From assembly GCA_002724675.1 (NCBI GenBank), contig PBPL01000213.1, positions 1-53,784 on the forward strand: a stretch of 53,784 nucleotides of DNA, read 5' to 3'. The stretch's first letter is position 1. Each line of letters opens with the position of its first letter. The notes beneath the pieces were generated by a model that searched no databases, was not told the origin of the DNA, and saw only the letters and a program-made list of their open reading frames with translations. Both the position numbers and the translations under genes were made by a program. This DNA comes from Deltaproteobacteria bacterium (lineage in GTDB: Bacteria; Myxococcota_A; UBA796; UBA9615). Shown one piece after another: positions 11,423-43,044 of this stretch.

Positions 11423-11449
11423 ACAGCCGCGACAGTGAACCGGCCTCGC

Positions 11450-12799: not shown

Positions 12800-12848
12800 G
12801 ATCTTAGCGTCAGTCCCACACCGTGACTCGACCACGAAGCAAAGAGCC

Positions 12849-21251: not shown

Positions 21252-21359
21252 CAGCGCGAGCCGCGAGCGTCCATGCTGGACTCAGAGCACCGCTTAGAAC
21301 CCTCTAAATGGGGACTAGAGGCACTGCAGCACCCCGCTGTGGTGGTTGACCCCACCTTC

Positions 21360-22118
21360 TCAAAAAACGAACGGAACCAGCGCCTTTCGCTCCTTGGGGT
21401 ACTCGGGAAACTGCTCGTGATACCAGCGATGGTGGCTCCGCGACCTGGGAACCAGATTCGCCGCGGTGTACGCGGCAAAGGCAACGCCGGCCAACGACCA
21501 GGTCGCCAGTGCCCAGCCTATCCATTCCAGGATCTCCCCCAGGTAGTTGGGGCAACTGACCCACTTGTAGAGCCCACCCTCGGGCACCTTGTATCCGCTC
21601 TGACCGGGGCCACGAAGCTTGAGCAGGACCCCATCGGAGTACAAGTTGATCCCCATCCCCAATGCAAAGAGGGCTGCCCCCGCAACAAAACGCGGATTGG
21701 CCAGCCACTCCAGGGAATAGGTACCCAGGTGAGACACCCAGCGAGCGTTGATGTACGCATTCACAAGGGTGAACAGAAACGCCAACAGTGCGACAAAGAA
21801 AGGAGTCCGCCGACCCGTCGACTTCATGCGGAGAGGATAAATGAAGGTGCGGTGCACATAGTGGACCTGCCACATGGCCAAGAAAAGGAGCGGCACCGGC
21901 GCTGCCCGATGCTCTCCGAGGGCATACACCCCAAGAAAAACGAGAACTGAAGGCGACTCCATGACGAGCCAGGACCAACGAGCCGAAGCGGTCGGTCCCC
22001 AGCCAGCACGACCGTGCCGCCCATAGGGTGCGCTGATGACCATCAAGAGACACGCTGTCAGCGGCGCCAGGAGCAAGACCGCCCACACCAAAGCTGAGTG
22101 AAGACCTGTTTCGGTCAT
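21360..22118 (-). CDS. 3-oxo-5-alpha-steroid 4-dehydrogenase (steroid 5-alpha-reductase) family membrane protein
   Basis: The C-terminal signature is GLYKWVSCPNYLGEILEWIGWALATWS...VPRSRSHHRWYHEQFPEYPKERKALVPFVF, and the protein is multi-TM. The start was set at ATG 22118, forming an ATGA overlap with the upstream stop. Confidence 0.8.
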   Translation of the reverse strand: MTETGLHSALVWAVLLLAPLTACLLMVISAPYGRHGRAGWGPTASARWSWLVMESPSVLVFLGVYALGEHRAAPVPLLFLAMWQVHYVHRTFIYPLRMKSTGRRTPFFVALLAFLFTLVNAYINARWVSHLGTYSLEWLANPRFVAGAALFALGMGINLYSDGVLLKLRGPGQSGYKVPEGGLYKWVSCPNYLGEILEWIGWALATWSLAGVAFAAYTAANLVPRSRSHHRWYHEQFPEYPKERKALVPFVF

Positions 22119-23119
22119 TGCAACTCGCCCAATCGCAGTTCCTTCGGCAGCTGGTCGCGAGCTGCAAACCATGCGTACGTGTCTCGCACTGTTTCCTCCA
22201 TGGGTCGAGCGACATGGCCCAGCTCTGCCCGAGCCAGGCTATCGTCTACCTGCGGATTCGTCTCCAGAGCATCCAAGGCCTCCCGAGTGTAGAGGGGCTC
22301 CTTGCGAGTAGCCCGGGCGCTCCACTCCATGAGCGGGGCACCTAAGCGAGCCATCCAGAGAGGCGTGACCAGACGTGGCGGAACCACTCCGATGACCTGC
22401 TGGGCCACATCAGCCAACTGTTGGGTCGTCAAACGTGGACCACCCAAGAGGTAGTTCTGACCCGTCGATCCTCGCTCGGACGCCGCGACCATCGCTGTCA
22501 CGACATCGCGAACATCCACCCAGGTAAAGCCGCCTTCCACCAGCGCTGGTAGGCGGCGGTGCGCCAGGTCCAGGAAGAAGTGTCCCATTCTGGAGGGCCG
22601 GAAGTCCCCGGGACCGACAACCCCCACCGGGTTGACCAACACTCCGTCGAGGCCGTCAGCGATGACCGCCTTGACTCGAGCCTGCCCCAAGGCCTTCGAG
22701 TAATCGTAAGCGGGCCGGTCCGACCCGGAAGGGACACTGCTTTCGTCGATAGGAGCCCCACCACGGCTGAGGTCGTAGGCATGGACTGAGCTCACATGCA
22801 CAAAGCGCCCTACTCCCGCCTCCAGAGCGGCCCGGGCAGCGTTCTCGGCTCCATTCACGTTCGTACGACGAACCTGACCGTCGGGATCTCCCGTAATCGA
22901 GATGAGGGCCGCCAAGTGGTATGCGACATCGACACCCTCGAACAACCTCGACAGCGAGGCCTTGTCCAACACACTCCCTTCAACATGGTCCAACCCAAGC
23001 CCTTCGATGCCCCGTCGGTCCCGGTGGACCAGGACGCGCACCTCGATGCCCATCTGCATCAGATGCCTCACGAGATTGGCCCCGATGTGGCCGGTCGCTC
23101 CGGTCACCGCTGCTTTCAT
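22115..23119 (-). CDS. NAD(P)-dependent extended SDR (epimerase/dehydratase; 3-beta-HSD / dihydroflavonol-reductase-like)
   Basis: The N-terminal Rossmann motif is MKAAVTGATGHIGANLV. Catalytic YDYSK (YxxxK) and VHVSS are present. The product is 334 aa. Confidence 0.85.
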   Translation of the reverse strand: MKAAVTGATGHIGANLVRHLMQMGIEVRVLVHRDRRGIEGLGLDHVEGSVLDKASLSRLFEGVDVAYHLAALISITGDPDGQVRRTNVNGAENAARAALEAGVGRFVHVSSVHAYDLSRGGAPIDESSVPSGSDRPAYDYSKALGQARVKAVIADGLDGVLVNPVGVVGPGDFRPSRMGHFFLDLAHRRLPALVEGGFTWVDVRDVVTAMVAASERGSTGQNYLLGGPRLTTQQLADVAQQVIGVVPPRLVTPLWMARLGAPLMEWSARATRKEPLYTREALDALETNPQVDDSLARAELGHVARPMEETVRDTYAWFAARDQLPKELRLGELQ

Positions 23120-23243
23120 CCACTCGACTCCTGGCGAGCACGTCCATACCCAGCTTCTACTTCATACACTGGACAACCCCAGTTGGTGGACAAGTCCTTT
23201 AGAAACCTTTCCACTCCCTCAGAAAGCGTTCCCAAACGACGTC

Positions 23244-23273
23244 TTGACAGGCTTCTGAGCGCAACGCTACGGT
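23244..23273 (+). promoter_or_regulatory. Candidate sigma-70-type promoter for the riboswitch-led operon
   Basis: TTGACA at 23244-23249, an 18-nt spacer and TACGGT at 23268-23273 sit ~25 nt upstream of the riboswitch. This is sequence resemblance only. Confidence 0.3.
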
Positions 23274-23297
23274 TCGGCGGTTGCCAGAACTCTGGCG

Positions 23298-23478
23298 ACA
23301 GGACATCGACGGAAGTGGTGCTCGCGCGAGTGCGCGAGCAAGGGAAGCCGGTGAGAGACCGGCGCGGCCCCCGCCACTGTGACCGGGGACGGCCCTGCAC
23401 AAAGCCACCGGAGCTGACCGGGAAGGCGCAGGCAGCCGAGTGATCCGGAAGCCAGGAGACCGACCTCTCCCGTCCAGA
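23298..23478 (+). promoter_or_regulatory. Cobalamin (B12) riboswitch
   Basis: Conserved core elements include GGTG followed by the hairpin CTCGCGC-GAGT-GCGCGAG. The core also holds AAGGGAAGCCGGTGAGAGACCGGCGCGGCCCCCGCCACTGTGACCGGGGA and GCCACCGG..CCGGGAAGGCG. The B12 box AAGCCAGGAGACCGACC is at 23449-23465. It lies directly upstream of a TonB-dependent receptor gene. Confidence 0.85.
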
Positions 23479-23543
23479 ACTACGAGCCCCGGGGTGGTGG
23501 GATCGTGTCGCGACCCGGGCTGCAGCTCCCGTCTCGAACCGGA

Positions 23544-23576
23544 CCTCTCCTCTTCCGCAGGGCGTGGGAGGAGAGG
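23544..23576 (+). promoter_or_regulatory. SD-sequestering hairpin (putative riboswitch expression platform)
   Basis: A perfect 9-bp stem pairs CCTCTCCTC (23544-23552) with GAGGAGAGG (23568-23576), with a 15-nt loop. The 3' arm is the only SD-like sequence ahead of the receptor start (TTG 23580 or ATG 23598). Confidence 0.45.
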
Positions 23577-23579
23577 AAC

Positions 23580-25883
23580 TTGCGCTGTCTCCGCAGCATG
23601 ATGACGCTCCTCATGGGACTCGTGACCCTCGCATCACTCGTCCGCCCTAGCTGGTCTGCAGATCTGCACAACCAGGAGGGCCCGACCTGGACCACGGCTA
23701 TGTCCGATGATCGTTCGACTGAACAGGACGAAGAGGCGCAAGGCGAGGACGACGACAAAGACGACAACAACGAAGACGACGAAGAAGAAGAGGCCCAGGA
23801 CAACTCTGCCTCCAGGGAGAGCGCCACAGAGCAACCTAGCAAGGCTGCTTCTGAAGAGATCCATGCTCGTGTCCAAGTGGAAGAAGCGCGAAGAAGGCTG
23901 AGTCCTCGAGAGCGTCGTTTCGGAGCCCCGCTGGCTGTCTCGACAATGGACCTGGACGAGGACCTTGCCCCTGGCGCCACGCTGGCGGATGTCCTGGGAG
24001 GCCTCGCGGGGGTCCATGTGCGCCAATTCGGCGGACCTGGTGACCCCTCCACCGTCTCGCTCCGAGGCTCGACCGCCCGACAGGTGGAGATCTGGATCGA
24101 TGGGGTGCCACTGAATTCACTGGGCAGTTCCGTCATCGATCTGAGCGAGCTCCCCGTGGATTCATGGGATCAACTGGATGTGTTCCGAGGATTCGCACCG
24201 CCAGAGCTCGGTGGAGCGCCTATCGGCGGAGTCGTCCATCTGAGCAGCAAGCCGGGAAGAGTCCGTCCCTTTTCCGTGGAGGCCGGGATTGGGTCCTGGG
24301 CGACTCGCTTCCTACACCTGGGCGCGGGATCAAGCCGAACAACCCCTGGCGGAGGACTGGTGGATGTGCGGCTCGACGCTCGCTACGACGGCACCCGTGG
24401 GGACTTTCGCTACCTGGACAACCAGGGGACGATCTACAACTTGCTAGACGACCGGACCCGGTTTCGAGCCAACAACGCTCGGGATCAACTGCACCTAGCC
24501 GCACGCAGCACTCTGTTCCGAGGCCCTCTAGTACTGAACTTCTCGGACCTGCTCCTGTGGCGCGGGGAAGGGGTCCCCGGCCCAGCCCACGGCAGCACAG
24601 AGCAGGCCCGCTTCACGGTAATGCGCAACCTCGCCAGTGTGTCGGCGAAGATCACCCCGAGCTCGAAAACCTCTCTGCACCTGAGCTTGAGTCATATCGC
24701 TCGAGAAGAGAGGTTCCGCGATCTCTATGGAGAGATCGGCCCGGGTACCTCGGACAGCCGAGACCGCTACCATCAGCTGACGGGGGCAACCTCGGCACAG
24801 CTACATCCCGTGGACTGGCTCGCGCTCATCCCCGCCGTGCGACTGGTGGTCGACACCTATGCAGCATCGAACCGCCTGCTTGAGAGCACCACAGCGACGA
24901 CCCAGTTACGAGTCGCCACCGAGTTGGGGTTCAGCGCCAAGGCGACGTTCTGGGCCGAGCGCATATCGCTGCTGTCCGGGCTCTCATTTTATGGGCTGGG
25001 GAACCACCAATTGGGGGACGTGCCGTACCAGGACCAAACCACAACATCCGAGGGAATCGAGTGGGGCCGACACTTCCAGCCACGAATCGCGATCGCGTTT
25101 CGACCCAAGCCCTGGCTCACCCTCCGGAGCAGCCTCGCTAGAGGATTCCGACCGCCCACCTACGAGGAGCTCTTTGGCCAACACGGAACCATGGCCGGCA
25201 ACCCCTGGCTGCTCCCCGAGTCCTCCGAGTCCGCAGACCTGTCTCTGCGTGTGGGTGGGCGGCTTCACAAGTGGCTCAATGCCGGAGTCGAGATGGGCGG
25301 GTTCCTCGTGTTCACACGAGATGCCATCGTCTATCGACCCAATGCGTTCCGAGTCGCCGCGCCCACTAATTTTGGCCGCATCCGAGTGGGCGGTATCGAA
25401 CTGGCGGGCAGTGCGCAGGTCCTCGGATGGCTTCACCTGACCGGCGCTGCAACGTTTGTCGACTCCGAAATTCTGGAGGGAGAGACCGCCCATCTGGGGA
25501 ACCAGGTGCCAGCCACTCCCCGCTGGCAACTGGATGCTTCTGTGGCCATTGAGCTGGACCACCACCTCAAGCTGCGATGGCAGTTCGCCTATACAGACGG
25601 CACCTTCGACAGTCCCACCAACCTCTTTCGTGCAGCTCCCCGACCCATCCACTCCCTGCACCTCCGGGTTCAACCAGACATTCGCTTCCCCTGGGTGGCG
25701 CTCGACCTACGAAACCTGTTGGACACCACCATGGCGCCGCAGTACCGCAACCCCACGAATCCTGACCCGCAAGACCGCCATATCGTCTCTCTCGAGGACT
25801 TTCGTGGGAACCCGCTGCCCGGCCGGTCCGTGTTGATCACCGTAGGCTGGTCCCCCCCGAGAGCCGAAGGGCAACAACCATGA
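23580..25883 (+). CDS. TonB-dependent outer-membrane receptor (BtuB-like by context) with acidic N-terminal extension
   Basis: The plug motif is LADVLGGLAGVHVRQFGGPGDPSTVSLRGSTARQVEIWIDGVPLN, followed by a long beta-barrel-type sequence. The start is proposed at in-frame TTG 23580, 8 nt after GGAGG, giving MRCLRSMMTLLMGLVTLASLVRPSWSA. The alternative is ATG 23598. An acidic insert reads EEAQGEDDDKDDNNEDDEEEEAQD. Confidence 0.85.
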   Translation: MRCLRSMMTLLMGLVTLASLVRPSWSADLHNQEGPTWTTAMSDDRSTEQDEEAQGEDDDKDDNNEDDEEEEAQDNSASRESATEQPSKAASEEIHARVQVEEARRRLSPRERRFGAPLAVSTMDLDEDLAPGATLADVLGGLAGVHVRQFGGPGDPSTVSLRGSTARQVEIWIDGVPLNSLGSSVIDLSELPVDSWDQLDVFRGFAPPELGGAPIGGVVHLSSKPGRVRPFSVEAGIGSWATRFLHLGAGSSRTTPGGGLVDVRLDARYDGTRGDFRYLDNQGTIYNLLDDRTRFRANNARDQLHLAARSTLFRGPLVLNFSDLLLWRGEGVPGPAHGSTEQARFTVMRNLASVSAKITPSSKTSLHLSLSHIAREERFRDLYGEIGPGTSDSRDRYHQLTGATSAQLHPVDWLALIPAVRLVVDTYAASNRLLESTTATTQLRVATELGFSAKATFWAERISLLSGLSFYGLGNHQLGDVPYQDQTTTSEGIEWGRHFQPRIAIAFRPKPWLTLRSSLARGFRPPTYEELFGQHGTMAGNPWLLPESSESADLSLRVGGRLHKWLNAGVEMGGFLVFTRDAIVYRPNAFRVAAPTNFGRIRVGGIELAGSAQVLGWLHLTGAATFVDSEILEGETAHLGNQVPATPRWQLDASVAIELDHHLKLRWQFAYTDGTFDSPTNLFRAAPRPIHSLHLRVQPDIRFPWVALDLRNLLDTTMAPQYRNPTNPDPQDRHIVSLEDFRGNPLPGRSVLITVGWSPPRAEGQQP

Positions 25884-27019
25884 GCACACGGGCAACGCAG
25901 TCCCTGCTGCTGGCGGGAAGCACTGTGCTCGCAATCCTCTGCAGTGGCTGCGAACCAGGCCAAGGGATCACAACAGGTCCAGCGGGGCAAGAGGACGAGT
26001 CTGGCTCAGAGACAAGGAGCGCCGTCGTCGTAACCAGCGACTACACAGACACTCTCCTGGCCCGAGTCGGCGTCGATAGCCTCGAGGTGACCGACCAGCT
26101 CGTCGCCTACGCAGAAGGAGATGTTCGGGTCTTCGCGCAGGATGAAGATGTCTTTGTCGTGTCCCGAACTGGCGCGGACGTGGTGCGACGTTTTGACGGC
26201 AACACCATTGCCGAAGGGCCCACTCTAGAGTTCAGCACGGGAGCTGGGTCCAATCCTCACACCATCAAGGTCTGTAGAGACCGCCTGTTCGTCAGCCTCT
26301 ACGACGAAAGCGCCATCAGCATCAGAGAGCCCATCAACGGAGTAGAGGTGGGGCGCGTCGATCTCACGCAGTACGACGAGGGGAGCGACGGTAGCTGTGA
26401 GCCCTCCTCCATGGTGCTCTACGAAGACACTCTGTTGGTTGCTCTCGAGCGATTCAATCTCCAGACCCTCGAAGGAGACCCGGTGGGCTGGGTCGTCCAG
26501 GTGGACTGCGAGACGGGCGATGTCATCGACAGTTGGCAGACTGCACGGAATCCTTCGATTCAGGCCGACCCGAGCGAGGAGGGAAGACTCCTCGTGCGGG
26601 AGGGTGACTTCTTCCAGTTGGACGGGGCTGTCCGCGTGCTCGATATCCCATCGGGGTCCTGGATCCAGACCCTCGTGACAGAAGCCGATCTCCAAAGAGA
26701 CATCACCGGCGTCGCCGCCAACGATGGACAGCTGGTCGTGGTTGCCTGGGACTACGCAGCCACGCCCCAGACATTCGATATCCTCTGCCTCGACCGTACG
26801 ACAGGAAGCTGGCTCGACGGCCCGTCGGGGTTGCCGCAAAACATCTGGACGGTCCGAACGGCACCGGACGGCCGCGTCTGGATTGCTGCCTTGCCTCCTT
26901 ACGACGATCCAGCCGCAGAGCACGGCATCCTGGTACTCGACCCCACCTCGTGCGAGCTGAGTAACAACGGTGCATGGGTTCCCTTCAGCCTGCCGGCTAC
27001 GGACATGGCGTTTCCGTGA
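25880..27019 (+). CDS. Lipoprotein, probable beta-propeller (function unknown; operon partner of the receptor)
   Basis: It has an ATGA overlap with the receptor stop and lipobox LAILCSGC. The beta-rich sequence repeats strand-turn patterns (DVFVVSRTGADVV, RLFVSLYDE, TLLVALERF, GWVVQVD, QLVVVAWDY, RVWIAALP). The fold assignment is inference. Confidence 0.7.
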   Translation: MSTRATQSLLLAGSTVLAILCSGCEPGQGITTGPAGQEDESGSETRSAVVVTSDYTDTLLARVGVDSLEVTDQLVAYAEGDVRVFAQDEDVFVVSRTGADVVRRFDGNTIAEGPTLEFSTGAGSNPHTIKVCRDRLFVSLYDESAISIREPINGVEVGRVDLTQYDEGSDGSCEPSSMVLYEDTLLVALERFNLQTLEGDPVGWVVQVDCETGDVIDSWQTARNPSIQADPSEEGRLLVREGDFFQLDGAVRVLDIPSGSWIQTLVTEADLQRDITGVAANDGQLVVVAWDYAATPQTFDILCLDRTTGSWLDGPSGLPQNIWTVRTAPDGRVWIAALPPYDDPAAEHGILVLDPTSCELSNNGAWVPFSLPATDMAFP

Positions 27020-27381
27020 TGAGCACAGGACGCCCCCCCACAACCGCCTCCGTGATGATGGTCACTGCCGTCATTGGCCTGCTTCTGGTCATCAGCTGTC
27101 GTGCGCCGGACGCTTGCGACTCCCTCTGCGTCACGGCTCGAACGACCTACGAGCGTTGCCTAGAAGCCGAGGGGCGCACCTGGATCGACTCCGTCGAGTT
27201 CGACTCGGAGAGTGATTTCGACAACTGGTGCCATACATGGACTCTGGAGCGAAGACTGCTGGCTCGAACGGGCGAGGACGCCTCCGACGGAACAGAGGAA
27301 CTCCTACATGCCTGCGAAGCTCAACAACAGCGCCTGCAAGATGACAGCTGTGACGAGTTCTTCAGCATTCTCTTGGACTGA
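27019..27381 (+). CDS. Small Cys-rich lipoprotein
   Basis: The ATG at 27019 overlaps the upstream TGA by 1 nt (TGATG). The N-terminus MSTGRPPTTASVMMVTAVIGLLLVISC is a signal peptide plus lipobox. The mature part has 7 Cys. Confidence 0.6.
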   Translation: MSTGRPPTTASVMMVTAVIGLLLVISCRAPDACDSLCVTARTTYERCLEAEGRTWIDSVEFDSESDFDNWCHTWTLERRLLARTGEDASDGTEELLHACEAQQQRLQDDSCDEFFSILLD

Positions 27382-27383
27382 GC

Positions 27384-28955
27384 GTGCGCCATCCGATTCC
27401 CCTCCTCGTCTTATCCTGGGCCTTCTGCTCGTCACTCGGTGTGGGCTGCTCCCCCAGCCCCATAGACCAGAGCCCCCCATCACTTCGCTTTCTCCGTGAC
27501 GCGGTGCTGGTTCCCGGTGCAGAGGAGGGTCCACAAGTCGTCGAGCGGGAATGGAATGCTGGTGAGACGATAACCATGGACGGCTATACGGCCACCGCCC
27601 CCCGCCACCCAGAGTGTGTGCCCCTCTTCCAGGTGCCTCTGGGGGATGTCTCTCGCGTCGTCTCCATGGGCGGCACGGCCCCGGACACCGCGCTGGCCTG
27701 GTCACCAGACGAGCGCCTGCTCGCTGTAGGCAGTTACCGCGGTGAGGTGGTGGTGGTCGATGGAACCGACGGCACCATCCTGGCTCGGCGACGACTGGCT
27801 GAGACTATGGTCAAGCAAGTGGCATGGGCTGCAGACGGTCAAACTCTATACGCCACCGAGCAGTCCCCCGATGCCTTCTTGCACGCGCTCGATCCCGAAC
27901 ACTTAGGTTCGCGATGGACGGTTCGCTTGGCCGACGAGGTGGGGAGTTCCCCAGCTCCCGACGGGCAGGATGTCTTCGGCGTGTACACGCTCCCCACGGC
28001 CTACCAGCTTGCGGTACTGGAGGCAGGCGACCTCTTGGTCGGTGCAGCGCACGGATGGACTGACAAACACGGAGTCCGCCAGAACCTCTCCCGCCTGCTG
28101 CGATTCGGCCCCGACGGAACCGTTCGCGCCGCCTGGCCGAGCCAGGCGCTGGACGCAACCCTCATGCACTTTGCCATCGACGAGGCCGGCGACATGCTGG
28201 CGGTAGTCGTTGGCCGCACAGCCCATGGAGAGGCTCCTCCTGGACTCCCCATTGGCGGCCTGCAGTTGTTGAGCTTGGAGCAGTTGACGCCACTTCGTGC
28301 GTTGCCCATCGCCCCGCTGCCACCACACTTCAAGTCCACATTCATCTGGGAGGCTGTTGGCCTATCCGTAGCCAACGACCTCGTCATCGCCGGGATGGGG
28401 GACGGTCGTCTGATCGCCCAAGACCTCGCCGGCAAACCGAAGTGGCAGGTGGATCTAGGCACCCCACTGTCTTCGAGCACAGCCCCCATCTCCGCCTCCA
28501 TTGGCTTCGGCCTGCTTCGAGGGGATCAGTTCGTAGTCCACACATCTGGCACCAATGTGCCCTACGGCTCCTCCTCTCCAGCTGCACGGCCACCGTCGCC
28601 ACACCCCGGAGACAACACACTGTCCGTGTACGACGTGTCCGGCGCCCTCCAGTGGGCTCATCGCGGCATCGAGCAGTTGAATGGACTGGTCATGGGGGCG
28701 GATGGACGCACCCTGGTGGTAGGGACCACAGCGCGCCCCGATGACGGCAGAGAAGACCTCTTTGGAGCCGCGCTGTTCGACCTCGACCGCGAGCAGGCTG
28801 GAACCAAGGAGCGCATCGTCACGTGTCGCACGGAAGGACCGGTGTTCTTTCGCCCGAGCCTGAGCTCAGACGGTCGCCTCGCCCTCGCCGAACACCCATA
28901 CAGGCGGGCAGACGGAACTCTGAGTGGCACCTACCAGGTGACGGTGATGCGCTGA
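27384..28955 (+). CDS. Lipoprotein with WD40/PQQ-like beta-propeller repeats
   Basis: The GTG start lies 2 nt after the upstream stop. The N-terminus MRHPIPLLVLSWAFCSSLGVGC carries a lipobox. Repeats such as ALAWSPDERLLAVGSYRGEVVVVDGTDGTIL and VKQVAWAADGQTLYATE resemble WD40/YVTN blades. Confidence 0.7.
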   Translation: MRHPIPLLVLSWAFCSSLGVGCSPSPIDQSPPSLRFLRDAVLVPGAEEGPQVVEREWNAGETITMDGYTATAPRHPECVPLFQVPLGDVSRVVSMGGTAPDTALAWSPDERLLAVGSYRGEVVVVDGTDGTILARRRLAETMVKQVAWAADGQTLYATEQSPDAFLHALDPEHLGSRWTVRLADEVGSSPAPDGQDVFGVYTLPTAYQLAVLEAGDLLVGAAHGWTDKHGVRQNLSRLLRFGPDGTVRAAWPSQALDATLMHFAIDEAGDMLAVVVGRTAHGEAPPGLPIGGLQLLSLEQLTPLRALPIAPLPPHFKSTFIWEAVGLSVANDLVIAGMGDGRLIAQDLAGKPKWQVDLGTPLSSSTAPISASIGFGLLRGDQFVVHTSGTNVPYGSSSPAARPPSPHPGDNTLSVYDVSGALQWAHRGIEQLNGLVMGADGRTLVVGTTARPDDGREDLFGAALFDLDREQAGTKERIVTCRTEGPVFFRPSLSSDGRLALAEHPYRRADGTLSGTYQVTVMR

Positions 28956-30757
28956 TGACACACCTGCGCATCCGGATTGTGAGCTTGTGTTGGGCCTGGG
29001 CCCTAGCACTGGCCTGCGGCTGCGCTGACGAGCCCATGAGTCTCGAGGCAGACCCCGTCCCCGAGGGGCTGGACCTCAACGCAAGCCACGCCATGGAACG
29101 AATCGAGGTGCTAGCCGCTGACGGGAGCCCTGTCGCGTCCTTCCAACCGCCAGTGCCGCGGGCCAAAGTCCACTTCCCGGTACCTCTCGACCCGGGGGAG
29201 CGCTATAGGGTCGTCGGCCACTCTCGCCATGGCACCGCGCACACGATGGTGGCGGTGGTACGGGAACAAGAACAACTAGCAGTGGCCGTCGAGGCTCCCC
29301 TAGGACAGGTGGTGCGCAGGGTGAAGGACGGCCAGGTCCTCGAGTACCCCATTGTCGAGGGCAACCCCGCACAGGGCTTGCTGCTCCTCACCGCATCGAG
29401 CCCTCTGGAGGGAACTGTGTACCTGGGGCACGGGGGGGAAGGGGCCGACACAGCCGTCCCGCTCGTGTGGACAGCCAGCGGAGATCGACGGGTCGTGCCG
29501 CTCCCGTTGCCGGACAGTGGCGAGCAGTTCGTCCGAATCGCGGCAGGACAAGAACTGCTACGCATCACTCTTCGAGCGCGAACCACGACACTCGCAGAAG
29601 CCCAGCAGGCTCTGAAGATCACCGACATCGCCTTCCCGGCTGCATCGGACGGCCTGCCCGACGTGGGCCGCGAAGCCAGTCGGATCACGCTGCCATCGCG
29701 CCTCTGGGATCAGGTGCTACGCAAGACGGGTCTTGGCGCCCGAGCCAGAGCCGTGGAGCTTCCGTGGGCCTATCTCGGCGTCGAGCTCCAAAACAGTGGG
29801 GACCGCGCAATCTCGGTCCTGCTGGCTTCCCGCGTTGTGGACGGCTCAGGCCAAGACGCGCCGGCATTCCGCCCCAACCTGCGCAAGTACGACAGCGACA
29901 CCGGAGTGGTCACAGTTCTCCTGCGTGTTCCTCCCGGGCAGCGAGCGCGGGGGGCATTGCCCTTGTTTGTCGACCCTGGAGAGCTGGGCCATGGAGCATT
30001 AGAGTTCGAGCGGATCCTCGAGGTCACCCCGCTCGGCAGCAACGAGCCTCTGCTCGTGCGCAGGCAGGACCTCGTGGTGGACCAAGGCAACCCACTGGCC
30101 ACCTTCGGTTTCCTAGCTGTCGTCCTCGCCGCGCTTGTGGGCCTCGGGTTGGTGACACTCCGAGGGCCTGGGTGGCTTGGCAGCCAAGCTACCTCGACCC
30201 TGATGACTGTGGCCCTATTTGGCAACTTGATCTTTGTTCTGGCGGCTGCCTCGCACCTCGTGGGTATGGGGTTCGGGGCCTTCCTGGGTCCTTTCTCGTC
30301 CCTAGTAACAGGCCTACTGGATGAAGCGTTCCGCTTCGCACTCCTGGCAACATTGATCACCCTGCTGCCAGCACCCGGAATCGTCACCCTGACACTCGTC
30401 GTCAGTGCCCTGATGCGTGGCATCGCCCTCGGGGCCTTCACCCCCGGAGACCTGCTCGTCCTGTGCTCCTCGGTCGTTTGGCTGGAGGCCAGCCTCTGGC
30501 TCGTGGGGATCACTCGGGGAACCCGTTGGCGTGACGAAGGCCGCGTTCTTCGCTGGGCCCGCTTGTCCGTGGGCTTCGGGCTCGCGTCTGTTGCCAACGC
30601 TCTGTCGGGTCTTGCGGCCGCTGCCATCTTGTATCGCCTCTACTTTGCGACCTGGTATGTCCTGCTCATCGCTGGTGTGCCTGGCTTCCTGTACGTCCTG
30701 CTCGCCTGCTGGATGGCCACCGGCTTTGCAGCCTCGCTCCGAGAGGTGGAGGCATGA
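28955..30757 (+). CDS. Fusion: N-terminal lipoprotein/extracytoplasmic domain (~390 aa) + C-terminal 6-7 TM domain (putative ECF S-component)
   Basis: The ATG at 28955 overlaps the upstream TGA (TGATG). The N-terminus MTHLRIRIVSLCWAWALALACGC carries a lipobox. The C-terminal ~215 aa form successive hydrophobic helices (FGFLAVVLAALVGLGLVTL, LMTVALFGNLIFVLAAASHLV, FALLATLITLLPAPGIVTLTLVV, LLVLCSSVVWLEASLWLVGI, LSVGFGLASVANALSGLAAAAIL, WYVLLIAGVPGFLYVLLACWMATGF). The S-component role is inferred from its position directly before ecfA/ecfT. Confidence 0.65.
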   Translation: MTHLRIRIVSLCWAWALALACGCADEPMSLEADPVPEGLDLNASHAMERIEVLAADGSPVASFQPPVPRAKVHFPVPLDPGERYRVVGHSRHGTAHTMVAVVREQEQLAVAVEAPLGQVVRRVKDGQVLEYPIVEGNPAQGLLLLTASSPLEGTVYLGHGGEGADTAVPLVWTASGDRRVVPLPLPDSGEQFVRIAAGQELLRITLRARTTTLAEAQQALKITDIAFPAASDGLPDVGREASRITLPSRLWDQVLRKTGLGARARAVELPWAYLGVELQNSGDRAISVLLASRVVDGSGQDAPAFRPNLRKYDSDTGVVTVLLRVPPGQRARGALPLFVDPGELGHGALEFERILEVTPLGSNEPLLVRRQDLVVDQGNPLATFGFLAVVLAALVGLGLVTLRGPGWLGSQATSTLMTVALFGNLIFVLAAASHLVGMGFGAFLGPFSSLVTGLLDEAFRFALLATLITLLPAPGIVTLTLVVSALMRGIALGAFTPGDLLVLCSSVVWLEASLWLVGITRGTRWRDEGRVLRWARLSVGFGLASVANALSGLAAAAILYRLYFATWYVLLIAGVPGFLYVLLACWMATGFAASLREVEA

Positions 30758-32364
30758 CCAGCCCCACCCTCCAGATCGCTGGGCTCTCGTACCGGTACCC
30801 CAGTGGCAGTGCACCCGCTGTAGGTCCTCTGGACCTCGAGGTGAGCCGCGGAGAAGTCCTACTGGTCTCGGGGCCGACGGGCTGCGGAAAGTCCACGCTA
30901 GCTCGACTGATCGCCGGCCTGGTCCAACGTCACGGCCGCGGGGAGCTTCACGGCTCGGTTCTGCTGGATGGTGCCGATCCATCCCTGCTGCCCAGGCCAG
31001 AGATGCCGAGTCGACTTGGCTTCGTCTCCCAGGATCCGTCGGACCAGATCGTGGCAGCCACCATTGGCGATGAGATCGCCTTTGGTCTCGAGTCCTCGGG
31101 TTGGGAGCGGGGAGCCCTGGTCGCGCGAGTAGAGGAGATCATCCACAAGCTAGGCCTGCCCGCTGACCCCGAGCGGTCTTCTCGGGCGCTCTCGGGTGGC
31201 CAGAAGCAGCGCCTCGTCGTCGGCGCGGCCGTGGCTGCCGGCGCTCGCGTGCTGGTCCTGGACGAGCCCTTATCGCAGCTCGATCCTGCAGCAGGAAGAG
31301 ACCTGCTGGAACGCCTCCGCCGCGCCGCAGACGGAGGGATGGTGGTCGTCCTCGTCGAGCACCGCATCGAGAGTTGCCTGCCCTACTGCGACCGCGTGCT
31401 CCTATTGGACCAGGGACAGGCGGCGTTCCTAGGTCCCCGGTCCCAGTTGCCCACCGAGACGCTCAGAAAGCTCGGTCTGGCCGTCCCGGCCATGGACGAT
31501 CTGCAAGACCGCCTAGAGTGTGCGCCAGACGACCTGCCCCAGGCCTTGCTGGAGCTGCTGCAAAGGCCAAGAGTGGCCCACACAGCCTCCACCGAGCCCG
31601 AGAGAGTCTTCCTCCAGACAATAGAGCCCCTGAGCTACAGCTACGGCTCAAATGACAGCGGCCACCAAGCCCTTCAGGGGGTCGACCTGTGCCTCAAAGC
31701 TGGTGACCGCGTCGCCATCCTGGGCGCCAATGGCTCCGGGAAGTCGACCTTGCTTTCGTTGTTGGCCGGCCACCTGCCCGCCAGCTTGAACAGCACGGGC
31801 CGGATCCTCCACGTGCCCCAAGACCCGGACCTGACACTCTTCTGTGCCAGCGTCGAGGAAGAGCTGGCCTACGGTCCCATGGAGTGGGGACTAGACCCCG
31901 CAGCCTGCCAGCAGCGAGCCCTCCGAGCCGCACGTGCACTGTCCCTAGAGCCCTTACTGCATCGACCGCCTCAGGCCTTGTCCCGCGGACAGAGAGTCAG
32001 AACTGCCGTCGCAGCAGCACTGACGTGCCAGCCCACCGTATTGCTGGTCGATGAGCCCACCTCTGGCCAGGACGGGAGCCACGTCGCCGGAATGATGGAC
32101 ACGATCACGGAGGAACTCGCGAACGGCTCGCTAGTCTTCGCCACCCACGATGTGGATGTCGCTCTCCGCTACAGCACTCGGGTGCTGGTGCTTCACGAAG
32201 GCCGACAGGTACTCGCAGGTCCGCCCAGCAGAATCCTGTTCGACCTTCCCCCCGAGTTGCCTCTGCTGCTTCCCCCCCTGGCCCGCTGGTGCGAAGAGCA
32301 CGAGGTCCCCTATGCCAGCGTCCAAGAGCTCAACGATCGATGCAGTTCTGGGGGCCAACCGTGA
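30754..32364 (+). CDS. ecfA: Fused tandem ABC ATPase of an ECF transporter (EcfA-EcfA'/CbiO-like)
   Basis: There are two ABC cassettes. The first has GPTGCGKST, LSGGQKQRL and VLVLDEP. The second has GANGSGKST, LSRGQRVR and VLLVDEP. It has an ATGA overlap with the upstream gene. Confidence 0.9.
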   Translation: MTSPTLQIAGLSYRYPSGSAPAVGPLDLEVSRGEVLLVSGPTGCGKSTLARLIAGLVQRHGRGELHGSVLLDGADPSLLPRPEMPSRLGFVSQDPSDQIVAATIGDEIAFGLESSGWERGALVARVEEIIHKLGLPADPERSSRALSGGQKQRLVVGAAVAAGARVLVLDEPLSQLDPAAGRDLLERLRRAADGGMVVVLVEHRIESCLPYCDRVLLLDQGQAAFLGPRSQLPTETLRKLGLAVPAMDDLQDRLECAPDDLPQALLELLQRPRVAHTASTEPERVFLQTIEPLSYSYGSNDSGHQALQGVDLCLKAGDRVAILGANGSGKSTLLSLLAGHLPASLNSTGRILHVPQDPDLTLFCASVEEELAYGPMEWGLDPAACQQRALRAARALSLEPLLHRPPQALSRGQRVRTAVAAALTCQPTVLLVDEPTSGQDGSHVAGMMDTITEELANGSLVFATHDVDVALRYSTRVLVLHEGRQVLAGPPSRILFDLPPELPLLLPPLARWCEEHEVPYASVQELNDRCSSGGQP

Positions 32365-33200
32365 CCGCCGCTGGAGCCAGACGACACCCGACGAGCAAGC
32401 TGGACCCTCGTACGAAGCTGGGGCTGCTGATCTGCGCAGGAGTGCTCGCTCTCGTGCTGGAGCAACCAGCTTCACTGGGCGTTCTCTCCCTCGCATGCGG
32501 ACTCCCCCTGCTTCTCCTCCCCATGTCCTGGTCCTGGCGAGTGCGAGCGTTGGCTGCCACCGCTGCCGTGATCTGGGCTACGACCTTGTCCCAGGCGCTC
32601 TTCTTCGCGGATCTCCCCAGGACGGAACTCTTTCGCCTAGGCCCCCTATCCATCTGGTCGGAGGGCATCAGCTATGGACTTGTTCAGTCGCTCCGCTTCG
32701 TCGCCGTCACGATGGGGGGGATTGCCCTGGCTGCCAGCACGCCACTGGACAGAATGCTCGCAGCGCTCGTGCGACTACGGGTTCCCTATACGCTCGCATT
32801 CCTAGCAGTCACTGGGCTTCGGTTTGTCCCAGAGGTGGGCCAAGAGGTTCTGACCGTGCGTCGAGCCCGAGCCCGGCGTGGCCGGCCTGCCCACAAGCGG
32901 CCCCCATGGAAGTGGTTGGCTCTAGAGGTCTCGATGCTGCGACCGGTCGTGGCGCGTTCGGTCCGGCGCGCGCGCTCCATGGCCGAGTCCCTAGACGTCC
33001 GTGGCTTCGATGCGGCGGCACCTCGAGCGGTCCGACATCCCCTCTCCATGAGCCGCTGGGAGGTGGCCCTGGTCGTTTGTTGCGCCCTCATCACACTTGC
33101 GGCTCTGGGTGCTCGGCTGCTGTACCTGGCCTACCTGGCCGATCTGGTCTACGTCCCCTCTCTCAGACATCTGTATGGCTTTGTGCGGGTATGGCTCTAG
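32361..33200 (+). CDS. ecfT: ECF transporter transmembrane (T) component, EcfT/CbiQ family
   Basis: Motifs are KLDPRTKLGLLI, a multi-TM body, RRARARRG and AESLDVRGFD (the CbiQ/EcfT coupling-helix Arg motifs). The start is either GTG 32361 (GTGA overlap with the ecfA stop) or ATG 32340. Confidence 0.8.
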   Translation: MTAAGARRHPTSKLDPRTKLGLLICAGVLALVLEQPASLGVLSLACGLPLLLLPMSWSWRVRALAATAAVIWATTLSQALFFADLPRTELFRLGPLSIWSEGISYGLVQSLRFVAVTMGGIALAASTPLDRMLAALVRLRVPYTLAFLAVTGLRFVPEVGQEVLTVRRARARRGRPAHKRPPWKWLALEVSMLRPVVARSVRRARSMAESLDVRGFDAAAPRAVRHPLSMSRWEVALVVCCALITLAALGARLLYLAYLADLVYVPSLRHLYGFVRVWL

Positions 33201-33243: not shown

Positions 33244-33708
33244 ATGGCAACGACTAGCCTTCAACAAGAGTATGGGGCCAAGGGCATCTGCTTTGGCTGC
33301 GGGCCTTCGAACGAGAAAGGGCTGCGCATCAACAGCTTTCCCGATGGCGACCAAGTCATCTGCCAATGGGACCCAGAGCAACACCATCAGGCCTTTCCGG
33401 GGATGCTCAATGGCGGGATCATCGGTGCACTGCTGGACTGCCACAGCAACTGGGCGGCCGCCTGGGCACTCATGAACGACCAAGGGCTCGATGAACCCCC
33501 CTGTACCGTGACTGCCAGTTTCTCAGTGCGCCTGCGTCGGCCCACCCCAGCCGACCAAACCGTCCACCTTCGAGCCTGGACGACTGAGATCAACGGGAAC
33601 AAGGCTGTGGTGGAATCCGAACTGTCCTGCGCCGGAAAAGTCTGTGCCACCTGCACTGGCACCTTCGTCGCTGTGGGGGCGGATCATCCGGCCTACCATC
33701 GCTGGTAG
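33244..33708 (+). CDS. PaaI-family (hotdog-fold) thioesterase
   Basis: The start was moved to ATG 33244 (MATTSLQQEYG...). Motifs are CFGCGPSN, GMLNGGIIGALLDCHSNWAA and ...GKVCATCTGTFVAV, typical of PaaI/DUF4442-type hotdog proteins. Confidence 0.7.
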   Translation: MATTSLQQEYGAKGICFGCGPSNEKGLRINSFPDGDQVICQWDPEQHHQAFPGMLNGGIIGALLDCHSNWAAAWALMNDQGLDEPPCTVTASFSVRLRRPTPADQTVHLRAWTTEINGNKAVVESELSCAGKVCATCTGTFVAVGADHPAYHRW

Positions 33709-33739
33709 CGGCAACTCGCTAATGAATAGTGAACCCATT

Positions 33740-34672
33740 ATGAGCCGCCAGCACACCCCCATTGGGTGGTTCCCGCCCAGGACCAACACATCCTTCGCTG
33801 CGCTCCTTTGGATAGTCCTCATCCTGGCTGGGTGTAGTGCCCACGAAGAGACCTGCTCCAGGGACGAGGACTGCCGCGAGGACTCCGTGTGCAACCTGGA
33901 GCGCAACATCTGCGTTGCTGTAGAGGCTCCCGACGACGACACCGAAGGAGCTGGCGAGCCGATCCCAGGTGACGACGACGACTCGGCAGAGAGCGACGAC
34001 GATGACTCGGCAGGAAGCGGCGAGATCCTTCCCGAGGAACAGGGCAGCCTCAAGACCACCAACTCCGTAGGTAGGAGCGGCTCGTACTTCCTGCCCGCCC
34101 GGGCCGCGGGCGAGCCCCTCGCTCTCCTGGCCGGCTACCACGCCACCGGGGGTGCAGGAAGTGGCTTCCTCAGCACCTTCGTGGATCTGGCTCGCACCCA
34201 CGGATTTGCCATCGTTGCGCCAGACTCACGCATCTCTCCCGATGGCCAGTACACGTGGGAGGTCGGCAATCTAGCGAACGAAGTTACGCCCGACTACAGC
34301 CACATGCTCGCATGCATTGACGAGCTGACGGCACGCCCGGATGCCACCTTGGGTGACGGGCGCATTCTGGCCGCAGGCCACTCGGGCGGGGCTAGCTCAG
34401 CCCCGTACATTGCCACCAATGAGGACCGCTTCCAGGCCTTTGCTGTGCTCCACGGCGGGGTCATCGCAGGCGGCATTGGCGAGCACCTCATTCCAGGATG
34501 GTTCTCCACCGGAGAGAACGACACGATTCGCTCGCCCGAGCACCTACAGGAACAAATGGACTACATGACTGCCCTGGGCTTCAGCGACTTGGAGCTTCAC
34601 ATCTATCCGGGCGGCCACGGGATCTCGGACCAGGAGGCCAGCGAAATGGTGGCCTGGTGGCTTGCCCTTTGA
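33740..34672 (+). CDS. Lipoprotein alpha/beta-hydrolase (carboxylesterase / PHB-depolymerase-like) with poly-Asp linker
   Basis: Lipobox LILAGC is present. The linker reads DDDTEGAGEPIPGDDDDSAESDDDDSAGSG. The nucleophile elbow is AAGHSGGAS, followed by GENDTI...IYPGGHGIS (Asp/His region). The start is ATG 33740 or 33722. Confidence 0.7.
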   Translation: MSRQHTPIGWFPPRTNTSFAALLWIVLILAGCSAHEETCSRDEDCREDSVCNLERNICVAVEAPDDDTEGAGEPIPGDDDDSAESDDDDSAGSGEILPEEQGSLKTTNSVGRSGSYFLPARAAGEPLALLAGYHATGGAGSGFLSTFVDLARTHGFAIVAPDSRISPDGQYTWEVGNLANEVTPDYSHMLACIDELTARPDATLGDGRILAAGHSGGASSAPYIATNEDRFQAFAVLHGGVIAGGIGEHLIPGWFSTGENDTIRSPEHLQEQMDYMTALGFSDLELHIYPGGHGISDQEASEMVAWWLAL

Positions 34673-34682
34673 GGAGTGCACC

Positions 34683-35114
34683 ATGACGCAGGACAAAAAA
34701 CCATTCATGGTCGCCGTGGAGATTCCTGTGTCGTGGGGGGATTTGGATGCTTTCCAGCACGTAAACAACACCGTCTACTTTCAGTGGTTCGAGACAGCCC
34801 GCATTCGCTATTTCGAGGAGATCGGATTCCTGGACCATCTGAAGGCCACCGGTGTGGGACCGATCTTGGCCGAGACGAGCTGCAAGTTTCGGCTCCCCCT
34901 GACCTATCCCGACACCGTTACGGCCTCGGCCCAAGCCATGGACCTGGGGCACGACCGGTTCACCATGCGTTATCGGGTCCACAGTGCTGAACACGGCCGC
35001 CTAGCGGCGGAGGGTGAGGGCCGGATCGTCTGTTTTGACTACCGAGGAAACAACAAGGCTCCCCTGCCCGACCCAATCCGAAAGGCCATCGAGACGCTGG
35101 AAGCCAGACGGTGA
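34683..35114 (+). CDS. Acyl-CoA thioesterase, 4HBT/YbgC-like hotdog fold
   Basis: SD GAGGAG lies 6 nt before ATG 34683. The motif VSWGDLDAFQHVNNTVYFQWFETARIRYFEEIG is characteristic of YbgC/4HBT thioesterases. Confidence 0.8.
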   Translation: MTQDKKPFMVAVEIPVSWGDLDAFQHVNNTVYFQWFETARIRYFEEIGFLDHLKATGVGPILAETSCKFRLPLTYPDTVTASAQAMDLGHDRFTMRYRVHSAEHGRLAAEGEGRIVCFDYRGNNKAPLPDPIRKAIETLEARR

Positions 35115-35995
35115 CCCGCTGGCTACTCCCCCTGGTCCCCCTCATGGGGGCGGCCCTTGTGCTGAGCTGCGCTGGGCCCTCCTCGACGCCGACAACAGAG
35201 ACAGCGACAACAGCGCTCACGTCCACAGCGCCTGCGAGTGGCGCCCCCGCTCGAGGAAGCAAGGAGCCAGCGCCATCCGACCGCCACACCGCGGTCCCAC
35301 CATCCCACGGCAGCGAAGAGCTGCGGGTGCTCTTCGTTGGCAATAGCTATACGTCCTCACACGACCTTCCGGTGCTGGTCAAGCAGATCGCCGAAGCATC
35401 CCAACCGCCGCCAACCATCCACACTCAGATGGTTTCCTTCCCCGGCTACAGCCTCGAACAACACTGGGAGCGAGGAGAGGCTCTGAAGACCATTCAGGAA
35501 AGCGCCTGGGACGTCGTGGTTCTTCAGGACCACAGCCTCCAGTCGATAGCAGCACCCGAGGCCTTGTTCCAGGCTAGCCAGAGCTTTGCGGAAGCCATCA
35601 AAGGCACCGGGGCTCGGGTCTTGTTCTTTGTCACGTGGGCCCGCCGAGATGTCCCTTCCATGCAAGACGGAATCACACTCGCCTACTCCCGGGCTGCCAG
35701 GCGGGCCGAAGGACACTTGGCCCCAGTCGGCCCAGCCTGGCGCTACGCCCGTGACCACCTCCCACACATTGCCCTCCACGATGAAGACGGAAGCCATCCG
35801 ACAACAGCGGGCACCTACTTGGCGGCGTGTGTGTTCTACTCCACCTTGTTCGGGCGTCCCCCGAACGGCGCTGAACAGCTGGGCTTCGGCGATCTATCCG
35901 AGGCTGAGCTGACTAGCCTTCAGAGCGCAGCGTGGACTGTCGTAGCATCGCGAACTGGAACCGACGGCGCCCCGCCCAACGAGACCGGTCGCTGA
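35111..35995 (+). CDS. SGNH/GDSL-like hydrolase lipoprotein
   Basis: It has a GTGA overlap with the upstream stop and lipobox ALVLSC. Block I-like VLFVGNSYT and block V-like EDGSHPT are present. Confidence 0.6.
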   Translation: MTRWLLPLVPLMGAALVLSCAGPSSTPTTETATTALTSTAPASGAPARGSKEPAPSDRHTAVPPSHGSEELRVLFVGNSYTSSHDLPVLVKQIAEASQPPPTIHTQMVSFPGYSLEQHWERGEALKTIQESAWDVVVLQDHSLQSIAAPEALFQASQSFAEAIKGTGARVLFFVTWARRDVPSMQDGITLAYSRAARRAEGHLAPVGPAWRYARDHLPHIALHDEDGSHPTTAGTYLAACVFYSTLFGRPPNGAEQLGFGDLSEAELTSLQSAAWTVVASRTGTDGAPPNETGR

Positions 35996-42184: not shown

Positions 42185-43006
42185 GTGGCTGCCGCTGAAG
42201 AACGAGGCTTCGACATTGCCGCTGTCCTCGGCACGGGCCTCGCCGCCCTCTCCATCGTGGGAGGCCACCTTTTCGAGGGTGGCTACATGTACCAAATTGT
42301 GCAGCCCACAGCAGCGCTGATCGTATTTGGAGGTACCGTCGCAGGCATTCTCGTGCAGTTCTCCTGGGAAGCCTTTATCCAGGCAGGCAAAGACACACGC
42401 GATATCCTCCAGCCACCGAAGCAGGACCTTCGCGAGACCATGGACACCATCCTCGAGTTGGCCAAGCTGGCTCGTCGACAAGGGCTGGTCGCCATCGACC
42501 GTGAAGCCCAAAAAATCGCCGACCCCTTCTTACAACGTGCCCTGCGACTGACTGCTGATGGCATTGAGCCGAAGGCGCTCCGACAGGCGCTCCAAATGCA
42601 GATCAAGAACGTGAAGTCGGAACGCATCACATCGTCGAAGATCTACGAGGCAGGCGGCGGCTACTCGCCCACCATCGGTGTGTTGGGCGCTGTCATGGGC
42701 CTCATTCACGTGATGGGCCACCTGACCGAGCCCGACAAACTTGGGGCGGGCATTGCGGTGGCGTTCGTGGCCACTCTGTACGGCGTGGGTGTTGCCAACC
42801 TCTTCCTGCTGCCCATTGCCGGCAAGCTGAAGACACTGCTGGACAAACGCGTCAAGCGAATGGAGCTCATCATTGAGGGAGCCGCGGCCATCGCCGCCAG
42901 CGAGAACCCACTGATTGTGGAGCAAAAGCTCACCACCTACCTACCCTCGGCGGAGCAGGAAGCGATCGCTGCGGCCCAAGCCAAGCCGGCCGATGCGGCG
43001 GCGTGA
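42185..43006 (+). CDS. motA: Flagellar-type stator protein MotA (MotA/TolQ/ExbB proton channel family)
   Basis: It has four TM segments. The conserved C-terminal channel region is GGYSPTIGVLGAVMGLIHVM...VAFVATLYGVGVANLFLLPIAGKL. The start is GTG, with AAGGAAGG upstream. Confidence 0.85.
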   Translation: MAAAEERGFDIAAVLGTGLAALSIVGGHLFEGGYMYQIVQPTAALIVFGGTVAGILVQFSWEAFIQAGKDTRDILQPPKQDLRETMDTILELAKLARRQGLVAIDREAQKIADPFLQRALRLTADGIEPKALRQALQMQIKNVKSERITSSKIYEAGGGYSPTIGVLGAVMGLIHVMGHLTEPDKLGAGIAVAFVATLYGVGVANLFLLPIAGKLKTLLDKRVKRMELIIEGAAAIAASENPLIVEQKLTTYLPSAEQEAIAAAQAKPADAAA

Positions 43007-43044
43007 CACGGACTGAACCTCGATAGCCCGCTTTCGGAATTGGC

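Follow-up and report, generated by a model that had tools for sequence, protein, structure and literature searches.

A cobalamin-riboswitch operon predicted to couple a BtuBG-like outer-membrane module to an ECF importer with an ectodomain-fused S-component

The BtuB–BtuG outer-membrane complex of Bacteroides was reportedly described by Wexler in 2018, and to our knowledge surface capture complexes of this BtuBG type have been described in Bacteroidota alone. Here we analyze a stretch of 53,784 nucleotides from a Deltaproteobacteria bacterium (contig PBPL01000213.1; hereafter the window), in which seven co-directional, translationally coupled open reading frames (ORFs), G1 to G7, lie on the + strand downstream of a cobalamin riboswitch. 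The riboswitch, the TonB-dependent receptor (TBDR), the BtuG-like propeller and the energy-coupling factor (ECF) module are all known as parts. Not described in Pfam, NCBIfam or the papers we found are S-components that form a family of their own and carry a fused ectodomain, the exported propeller that is their obligate partner, and a single riboswitch operon in which an ECF importer is coupled to a BtuBG-like module. The first-pass annotation of this DNA had not recognized the architecture as a described one, and the closer analysis agrees: G2, G3 and G5 have no match in Pfam or NCBIfam, the cluster falls in no curated family, and our literature search found no paper describing this arrangement. 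That annotation had counted eight genes; EcfA-EcfA′, which it counted twice, is a single fused gene, and the number of ORFs is seven. On balance, we lean toward reading the operon as BtuBG-like outer-membrane capture joined to a new ECF importer for a corrinoid. How B12 and cobalt cross the envelope in many bacteria without BtuFCD is an open problem according to genomic surveys (PMC6593275).

Like the operon studied here, the BtuB–BtuG system of Bacteroides is organized as a riboswitch-led TBDR immediately followed by a lipoprotein β-propeller (Abellon-Ruiz 2023; PMC10404256). The two differ in that the host here is Myxococcota-like rather than a member of the Bacteroidota, the Pfam PF16819 model does not detect G2, a further lipoprotein, rich in Cys (G3), is present, and the operon couples to an ECF module in lieu of BtuFCD; B12 binding by G2 is a prediction from this likeness. 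The BtuBFCD system of E. coli carries out the same task with a riboswitch-controlled TBDR, an ATP-driven importer and a periplasmic capture step. Its importer, however, is a type II ATP-binding cassette (ABC) transporter served by a soluble BtuF, for which the operon has no homologue. Consistent with what had been seen at first pass, Pfam and NCBIfam searches of the operon proteins return no BtuF, FecCD, CbiM or CbiN match. Because btuF, btuC and btuD are absent from the operon, the ECF module is the sole inner-membrane transporter that it offers.

Among ECF systems, YkoEDC of Bacillus subtilis is a group-I transporter whose substrate is a thiamine precursor and which is under thiamine pyrophosphate control. 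The module is a dedicated one whose double ATPase is fused (YkoD, comparable to G6), and YkoE (5EDL) is the closest fold to the transmembrane (TM) domain of G5 despite a sequence identity of 14%; YkoE, however, has neither an ectodomain nor an accessory protein, and G5 has both. The group-I metal systems CbiMNQO and NikMNQO (with NikK or NikL) often stand behind B12 riboswitches or in cob/cbi operons and include extracytoplasmic accessory parts. Although G6 and G7 score best or well with the CbiO and CbiQ models, G5 lacks a CbiM or CbiN domain, the MHxxEG motif and conserved metal ligands. ECF-CbrT of Lactobacillus delbrueckii is an ECF-type ABC importer linked to the uptake of B12 and cobinamide (PMC5997447). 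Together with the CbrTUV predictions, it shares its genomic logic with our operon, with no BtuFCD in the locus. In contrast to CbrT, to which its S-domain has no detectable sequence similarity, G5 has an extra helix (TM0), an ectodomain of ~375 residues and a dedicated propeller partner, and it occurs in a diderm host with a TBDR in the same operon. BtuM of Thiobacillus denitrificans is an S-component-like B12 transporter of a Gram-negative bacterium (PMC6072759), but it is solitary and small and ligates cobalt through a Cys, whereas no Cys is conserved in G5, which also shows no sequence match to BtuM.

Table 1. Features of the riboswitch-led operon, in window coordinates.
Feature	Position	Strand	Description
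Promoter-like site	23244-23273	+	perfect -35 TTGACA (23244-23249), 18-nt spacer, weak -10 TACGGT (23268-23273)
Riboswitch aptamer	23299-23482	+	RF00174 cobalamin riboswitch
Hairpin	23544-23576	+	CCUCUCCUCUU/GGGAGGAGAGG, burying GGAGG; candidate expression platform
G1	ORF 23505/23598-25883	+	TonB-dependent receptor, BtuB-like
G2	25880-27019	+	lipoprotein-type β-propeller, distant BtuG (PF16819/YncE-like) homologue
G3	27019-27381	+	small Cys-rich lipoprotein
G4	27384-28955	+	predicted extracytoplasmic WD40/PQQ-like β-propeller lipoprotein
G5	28955-30757	+	predicted Ig-like ectodomain fused to S-component-like TM domain
G5, N-terminal part	28955-30085	+	signal/lipobox and predicted all-β Ig/FN3-like periplasmic ectodomain, residues ~1-377
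G5, C-terminal part	30086-30757	+	predicted TM0 and six-helix ECF S-component-like domain, residues ~378-600
G6	30754-32364	+	fused EcfA-EcfA′ ATPase
G7	32361-33200	+	EcfT (CbiQ family) transmembrane coupling subunit

The AlphaFold2 model of full-length G5 (pLDDT 83.5) shows a signal/lipobox helix, an all-β region spanning residues 30-377 and a helical membrane domain. When this model was submitted to Foldseek, proteins with immunoglobulin (Ig), fibronectin type III (FN3) or macroglobulin (MG) domains alone were returned, and we therefore modeled the TM domain by itself. The resulting model (pLDDT 84.7, pTM 0.81) contains seven helices, and its top Foldseek match in the PDB is YkoE, with TMq 0.64, TMt 0.71, a root-mean-square deviation of 3.4 Å and a probability of 1.0; ThiT and NikM rank below it, NikM with TM-scores of 0.40/0.42. 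These models bear out the earlier proposal of a fused S-component in this gene, and we predict that the TM half of G5 adopts an S-component fold, with the group-I ECF type as its best match. On the basis of the positive-charge distribution, the ectodomain would lie outside and TM0 would enter the cytoplasm, followed by a six-helix core with both termini inside. By our reading of this topology, the most conserved motifs, LGPFSS and LYRLYxxxWY, would sit in periplasmic loops L1 and L5, respectively. A profile of the TM domain finds no PDB chain, CbrT included, and no Pfam family at E ≤ 10. Residues 38-128 repeatedly gave weak matches to the helical N-domain of ClpC in phmmer searches of the PDB (E 9e-5), which we rejected as spurious; AlphaFold2 confidently models this region as all-β, and the ClpC-like matches are probably a compositional artefact.

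The ECF energizing module recognized at first pass is evident in both remaining genes. G6 carries two ABC_tran (PF00005) domains and reaches 274 bits with TIGR04520 and 269 bits with TIGR04521, both slightly under the equivalog cutoffs, as well as 238 bits with TIGR01166 (cbiO), which is above the cutoff. G7 matches PF02361 (CbiQ) with an E value of 1.5e-23, and its best NCBIfam match is TIGR02454, the cobalt ECF T component CbiQ, at 68.5 bits. The cbiO and CbiQ matches speak for an alternative in which the TBDR and lipoproteins carry cobalt or a cobalt chelate across the outer membrane and G4 to G7 constitute a new group-I metal ECF that feeds B12 biosynthesis in place of CbiMNQO, with G4 and the G5 ectodomain in the role of CbiN, NikK or NikL. 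Extracytoplasmic accessory subunits such as these three are a hallmark of metal ECFs, and this too fits G4 and the ectodomain. Nevertheless, we consider cobalt the unlikelier cargo, and G5 itself provides several of the reasons. Its S-domain is far nearer to YkoE than to NikM, it lacks an MHxxEG N terminus and any CbiM or CbiN match in Pfam, and an alignment of 129 sequences reveals no conserved His, Cys or Met anywhere in the protein. The conserved polar residues of the S-domain in this alignment are instead E511, R521, Y560, R561, W567, Y568 and Y580, a pattern that suits an organic ligand, unlike the N-terminal His site of CbiM and NikM.

G5 belongs to a family of its own. A word-indexed search of 5.8 billion proteins returned 15 relatives, and when an HMM of the membrane domain was run exhaustively over 1.84 billion cluster representatives, 443 matched. 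Full-length members have 520-660 residues with the membrane domain at the C terminus, and shorter entries look like fragments. The fusion is therefore the norm in this family, which does not grade into known S-component families. Scanning one genome per species yielded 295 loci with G5, and the best 80 of these are all metagenome-assembled genomes (MAGs), from Myxococcota, Planctomycetota, Poribacteria, Negativicutes, Hydrogenedentota, Lentisphaeria, Fibrobacter, Desulfobulbaceae, Nitrospirae and others; the family spans at least eight phyla. For synteny, we searched all ORFs of the loci with G1 to G7 using phmmer and, in the 55 loci whose flanks are complete, counted same-strand hits no more than 6 kb from G5. 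A G4 homologue is present in 49/55, G6 in 43/55 and G7 in 37/55, compared with 18/55 for a TBDR, 15/55 for G2 and 10/55 for G3. The core is G4-G5(-G6-G7), with G4 placed either before G5 or after G7, and the TBDR-G2-G3 set is confined to the Myxococcota-like clade, where it precedes or follows the core or stands by itself (L087 and L088). The operon thus consists of two separable modules, TBDR-G2-G3 and G4-G5-(G6-G7). Unrelated MAGs, for example L001, L006, L014, L020, L025 and L086, have the same RF00174-led gene order with proteins that are 35-45% identical, and the arrangement is far beyond chance.

Some loci depart from this core. In Poribacteria and two Myxococcota MAGs, a riboswitch and G4/G5 occur without an adjacent ECF A/T module, a modularity that is typical of vitamin S-components and that we count in favor of a corrinoid. 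At the poribacterial locus L055 (7549-13277), a riboswitch is followed by a 426-residue protein with a dockerin-like C terminus, G5 and G4, with no adjacent EcfA/T; similar arrangements occur in L056, L059, L061, L065, L070, L071, L074, L079 and L082. The poribacterial loci also carry tandem PD40 propeller genes downstream on the other strand. Locus L088 (2595-11140, a Tara Oceans MAG) shares with window positions 19059-27019 the upstream genes for a PilZ protein and an epimerase as well as the TBDR-G2 pair, with no G3 to G7 at the site and no riboswitch match, a comparison that suggests that the ECF module has been gained or lost as a block.

G4, the most constant neighbor of G5, gives weak PQQ_2 and WD40 matches in Pfam, and a profile of its 28-sequence family matches WD40 propellers with E values down to 5e-43. 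Because every homologue examined has an N-terminal hydrophobic segment (judged by eye to be a signal peptide or lipobox, and in Negativicutes a TM anchor), G4 is predicted to be extracytoplasmic and held at the membrane. ECF transporters by rule work without an extracytoplasmic binding protein. Set against that rule, G5 has its large ectodomain and an exported G4 accompanies it in the 49 loci counted above, and either of them may bind substrate. We tentatively propose, with rather less confidence than we attach to corrinoid uptake as such, that G4/G5 represent a new class of ECF importer, in which the S-component is permanently fused to an Ig-like stalk and paired with an obligate membrane-tethered, corrinoid-capturing propeller. 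Such a class would break the rule, replace BtuFCD in diderms of at least eight phyla and, in Myxococcota, be wired to a BtuBG-type surface complex.

At the outer membrane, G1 contains the Plug and TonB_dep_Rec_b-barrel domains of Pfam, in keeping with its first-pass label. Its ORF opens at GTG 23505, a signal peptide follows directly after ATG 23598, and the latter is the likely start. The best solved relatives of G1 are 9GBC, an unnamed receptor, followed by E. coli BtuB and B. thetaiotaomicron BtuB1-3. Residues ~35-70 of G1 (window 23700-23810), which connect its signal peptide to the plug, include a strongly acidic low-complexity linker, DEEAQGEDDDKDDNNEDDEEEEAQD, which is common to its nearest relatives (L001, L006, L007, L016 and L040) and is not found in more distant ones.

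G2 carries a signal peptide and Cys and overlaps G1 by ATGA, and the TBDR-G2 pairing is seen in the loci carrying a G2 homologue. When the G2 family profile is compared with the PDB, BtuG-type chains make up the top 3 hits and 10 of the top 13; these include 8BLW_B, 8P97_B, 8OKV, 8BMX, 8BMY and 3DSM, entries identified as BtuG in the BtuBG paper (PMC10404256). We also assembled a PF16819 alignment from proteins retrieved with a BtuG1 fragment. Against it, hhalign gives G2 a score of 97.5% (E 6.8e-12) over 284 columns, covering the whole propeller, compared with 80% (E 1.4e-5) for G4 as a propeller control. G2 is thus at profile level a distant but clear BtuG homologue and the BtuG-like partner of the receptor, and it would be exposed at the surface by analogy. 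The first-pass labels for the receptor, EcfA-EcfA′, EcfT and the TM fusion stand; the relative of BtuG, however, is G2 and not the propeller lipoprotein G4. G4 was rejected as a BtuG equivalent on the grounds that its hhalign score is at the level of generic propellers and that its Negativicutes homologues carry the N-terminal TM anchor. The third protein of this module, G3, has the lipobox LVIS-C and seven invariant Cys in 15 homologues (C27 of the lipobox, C33, C37, C47, C71, C99 and C111), and it occurs solely beside G2 in the examined loci. Both the BtuG homology of G2 and the place of BtuB as the best named solved relative of G1 argue against cobalt as the cargo.

The regulatory element at the head of the operon is as proposed at first pass: cmscan finds a full-length RF00174 match (model positions 1-189) with a score of 101.3 bits and an E value of 2.9e-24 against a gathering score of 31.5, and this is the sole Rfam match above threshold in the window. 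Reading the sequence base by base, we recover the six gene junctions claimed before: ATGA at 25880, TGATG at 27017, TGA-GC-GTG with a 2-nt gap at 27379-27386, TGATG at 28953, ATGA at 30754 and GTGA at 32361. Upstream, the site at 23244-23273 may be a promoter; a consensus scan returned no promoter, and this site did not pass it. The hairpin downstream of the aptamer is found in both the minimum free energy and the centroid folds of the leader (23470-23615), whose stability is no greater than that of shuffled sequences (z = 0.4), and it could possibly regulate expression by sequestering the ribosome-binding site. No intrinsic terminator stands out above background, with 6 terminator-like sites compared with 4.7 expected in shuffled sequence.

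Across the related loci, we built a covariance model (R1) from the leaders of 12 loci and ran it on 1.4 Mb of locus sequence; it scores the window riboswitch at 138.7 bits. The model found 43 riboswitches, all but one (42/43) on the strand of the cluster. A same-strand riboswitch lies within 2.6 kb upstream of the cluster, or inside it, in 27 of the 67 loci that have upstream DNA (~40%), and such loci span Myxococcota, Poribacteria, Negativicutes, Desulfobulbaceae and Lentisphaeria. Two of these riboswitches were also recovered with Rfam, which found none in seven riboswitch-negative loci, where our model had therefore not missed any. A riboswitch leads the full operon in L086 and, in L087, the TBDR-G2(-G3) set alone, as it does btuBG, which we count in favor of a corrinoid. 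A B12-box site from a regular-expression pre-scan (L048, 4218-4294) proved false and was dropped after alignment. Two further loci are unusually rich in riboswitches. L077, from a Selenomonadales MAG, has five B12 riboswitch matches within 21 kb (6221-9448 and 19859-20028), four of them within 3.3 kb upstream of G5 and two separated by ~140 nt (7405-7616 and 7755-7948). In L089 (8922-12955), a G2 homologue lies between two divergent B12 riboswitches, of which one leads a 258-residue protein and G2 and the other, on the opposite strand, a 458-residue protein without a Pfam match.

Taken as a corrinoid system, the operon would encode riboswitch-repressed uptake across two membranes of cobalamin, cobinamide or a related intermediate, with the aptamer switching expression off when adenosylcobalamin is abundant. 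G1 would serve as the BtuB-like outer-membrane receptor, capped or served by the BtuG-homologous G2, and the disulfide-rich lipoprotein G3 would be an accessory of this module. At the inner membrane, G4 to G7 would work in place of BtuFCD. G5 would be the ECF S-component, with TM0 as the connection between its six-helix core and an Ig-like ectodomain that is lipid-anchored in the periplasm; G4 would dock on this ectodomain and capture or hand over the ligand as an analogue of a binding protein, and G6 and G7 would make the S-domain topple, so that the ligand is released into the cytoplasm. The ligand, the contact between G4 and G5, the direction of transport and its regulation are what we infer from this comparison. 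If correct, the scheme would give Myxococcota, Poribacteria, Negativicutes, Planctomycetota and others a way across the inner membrane, and BtuG-type capture would no longer be limited to Bacteroidota. An ECF system that comes with its own periplasmic domain and partner protein would also become available, in which the loading of an S-component in a diderm periplasm is directly testable. For annotation, four unnamed families (G2, G3, G4 and G5) gain a clear context.

The gene neighborhoods of the related clusters point in both directions, so that the choice between a corrinoid and cobalt left open at first pass is a real ambiguity. One close relative directly adjoins cobS-cobT-cobU, the nucleotide-loop assembly genes of cobinamide salvage, rather than chelatase genes, which favors a corrinoid over cobalt. 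Several observations weigh against corrinoid uptake. Among the more distant members of the G5 family, the half with ≤31% identity, the cluster stands amid cytoplasmic CobN, ChlI and ChlD genes in at least 12 loci, and these co-operonic class-I chelatases are the main support for cobalt; examples are the order TBDR-CobN-G4-G5-G6-G7-ChlD-ChlI in L067 and a riboswitch leading CobN in L041. In Phascolarctobacterium, the cluster sits with CbiK, CbiD, CbiG and methylases, a place usually occupied by cbiMNQO. The N-terminal MHxxEG motif of CbiM was found in none of the 85 loci examined, and B12 riboswitches control cobalt importers too. In addition, the Foldseek E value of the YkoE match is just 0.05 despite the high TM-score and probability. 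G1 falls under every NCBIfam equivalog cutoff (96 bits vs 599.7 for TIGR01779, TonB-B12, and 59 vs 836 for PRK10641). To the lack of any Pfam or NCBIfam match for G2 must be added that the PF16819 model matches 0/19 members of its family at E ≤ 1, and YncE-like propellers have diverse functions. Finally, ~60% of the related loci have no riboswitch. Cobalt also has a precedent in TBDRs led by B12 riboswitches that are predicted to import this metal, none of them confirmed (PMC7689651). The chelatase adjacency is not decisive, however, given that B12 biosynthetic operons often carry transporters for corrinoid salvage too.

The chelatase loci deserve description in their own right. CobN, ChlD, ChlI and a TBDR are interleaved with the ECF cluster in L067 (1625-17008), L069 (16-17014), L041 (15749-19947), L046 (899-12220) and L048 (25-15786), sometimes each with a B12 riboswitch of its own. 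The carriers appear to be anaerobes, which makes a CobN-type chelatase puzzling. The idea that the neighboring CobN might be a periplasmic dechelatase like HmuS (PMC12583661) was discarded: no signal-like N terminus was visible by eye, and ChlI and ChlD stand alongside. At a Veillonellaceae locus, the order is riboswitch-TBDR-ExbB-TonB-G5-G6-G7-G4. At L084 (15474-21234), a Veillonellaceae MAG, a NikA/Opp-type (SBP_bac_5) ABC importer stands directly after the TBDR-ExbB-TonB-G5-G6-G7-G4 genes and could be a cobalt/nickel arm of the same locus.

The chelatase association, together with a pocket that looks suited to an organic ligand and contains conserved Arg, would also fit a carboxylate-rich corrinoid intermediate. 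The imported ligand might then be a metal-free or early corrinoid (hydrogenobyrinic or cobyrinic acid diamide) that the neighboring chelatase metalates, or else a lower-ligand base; alternatively, G4/G5 might have no part in transport and merely be co-regulated, as the many loci without a riboswitch and the genomes with G4/G5 but without A/T genes would allow. We regard this group of explanations as improbable, more so than cobalt: the BtuBG-like module and the riboswitch make complete corrinoids the simplest ligand, and the ECF module is adjacent in most loci.

Around the operon, no other B12 genes are seen among the annotated ORFs of the window. Four co-directional genes (33244-35995) start 44 nt after G7 and encode, in order, a hotdog thioesterase, a polyhydroxyalkanoate-depolymerase-like esterase lipoprotein, another thioesterase and a lipoprotein with DUF4886; overlaps of 4-11 nt join the last three. 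No terminator separates these genes from the ECF genes, and they are not kept beside the cluster in other loci. Elsewhere in the window, a YtkA-like protein stands beside a multihaem cytochrome (c554/MtrC-like) at 10931-12982, and a MotA/ExbB-like and MotB/OmpA-like pair is encoded at 42185-43863.

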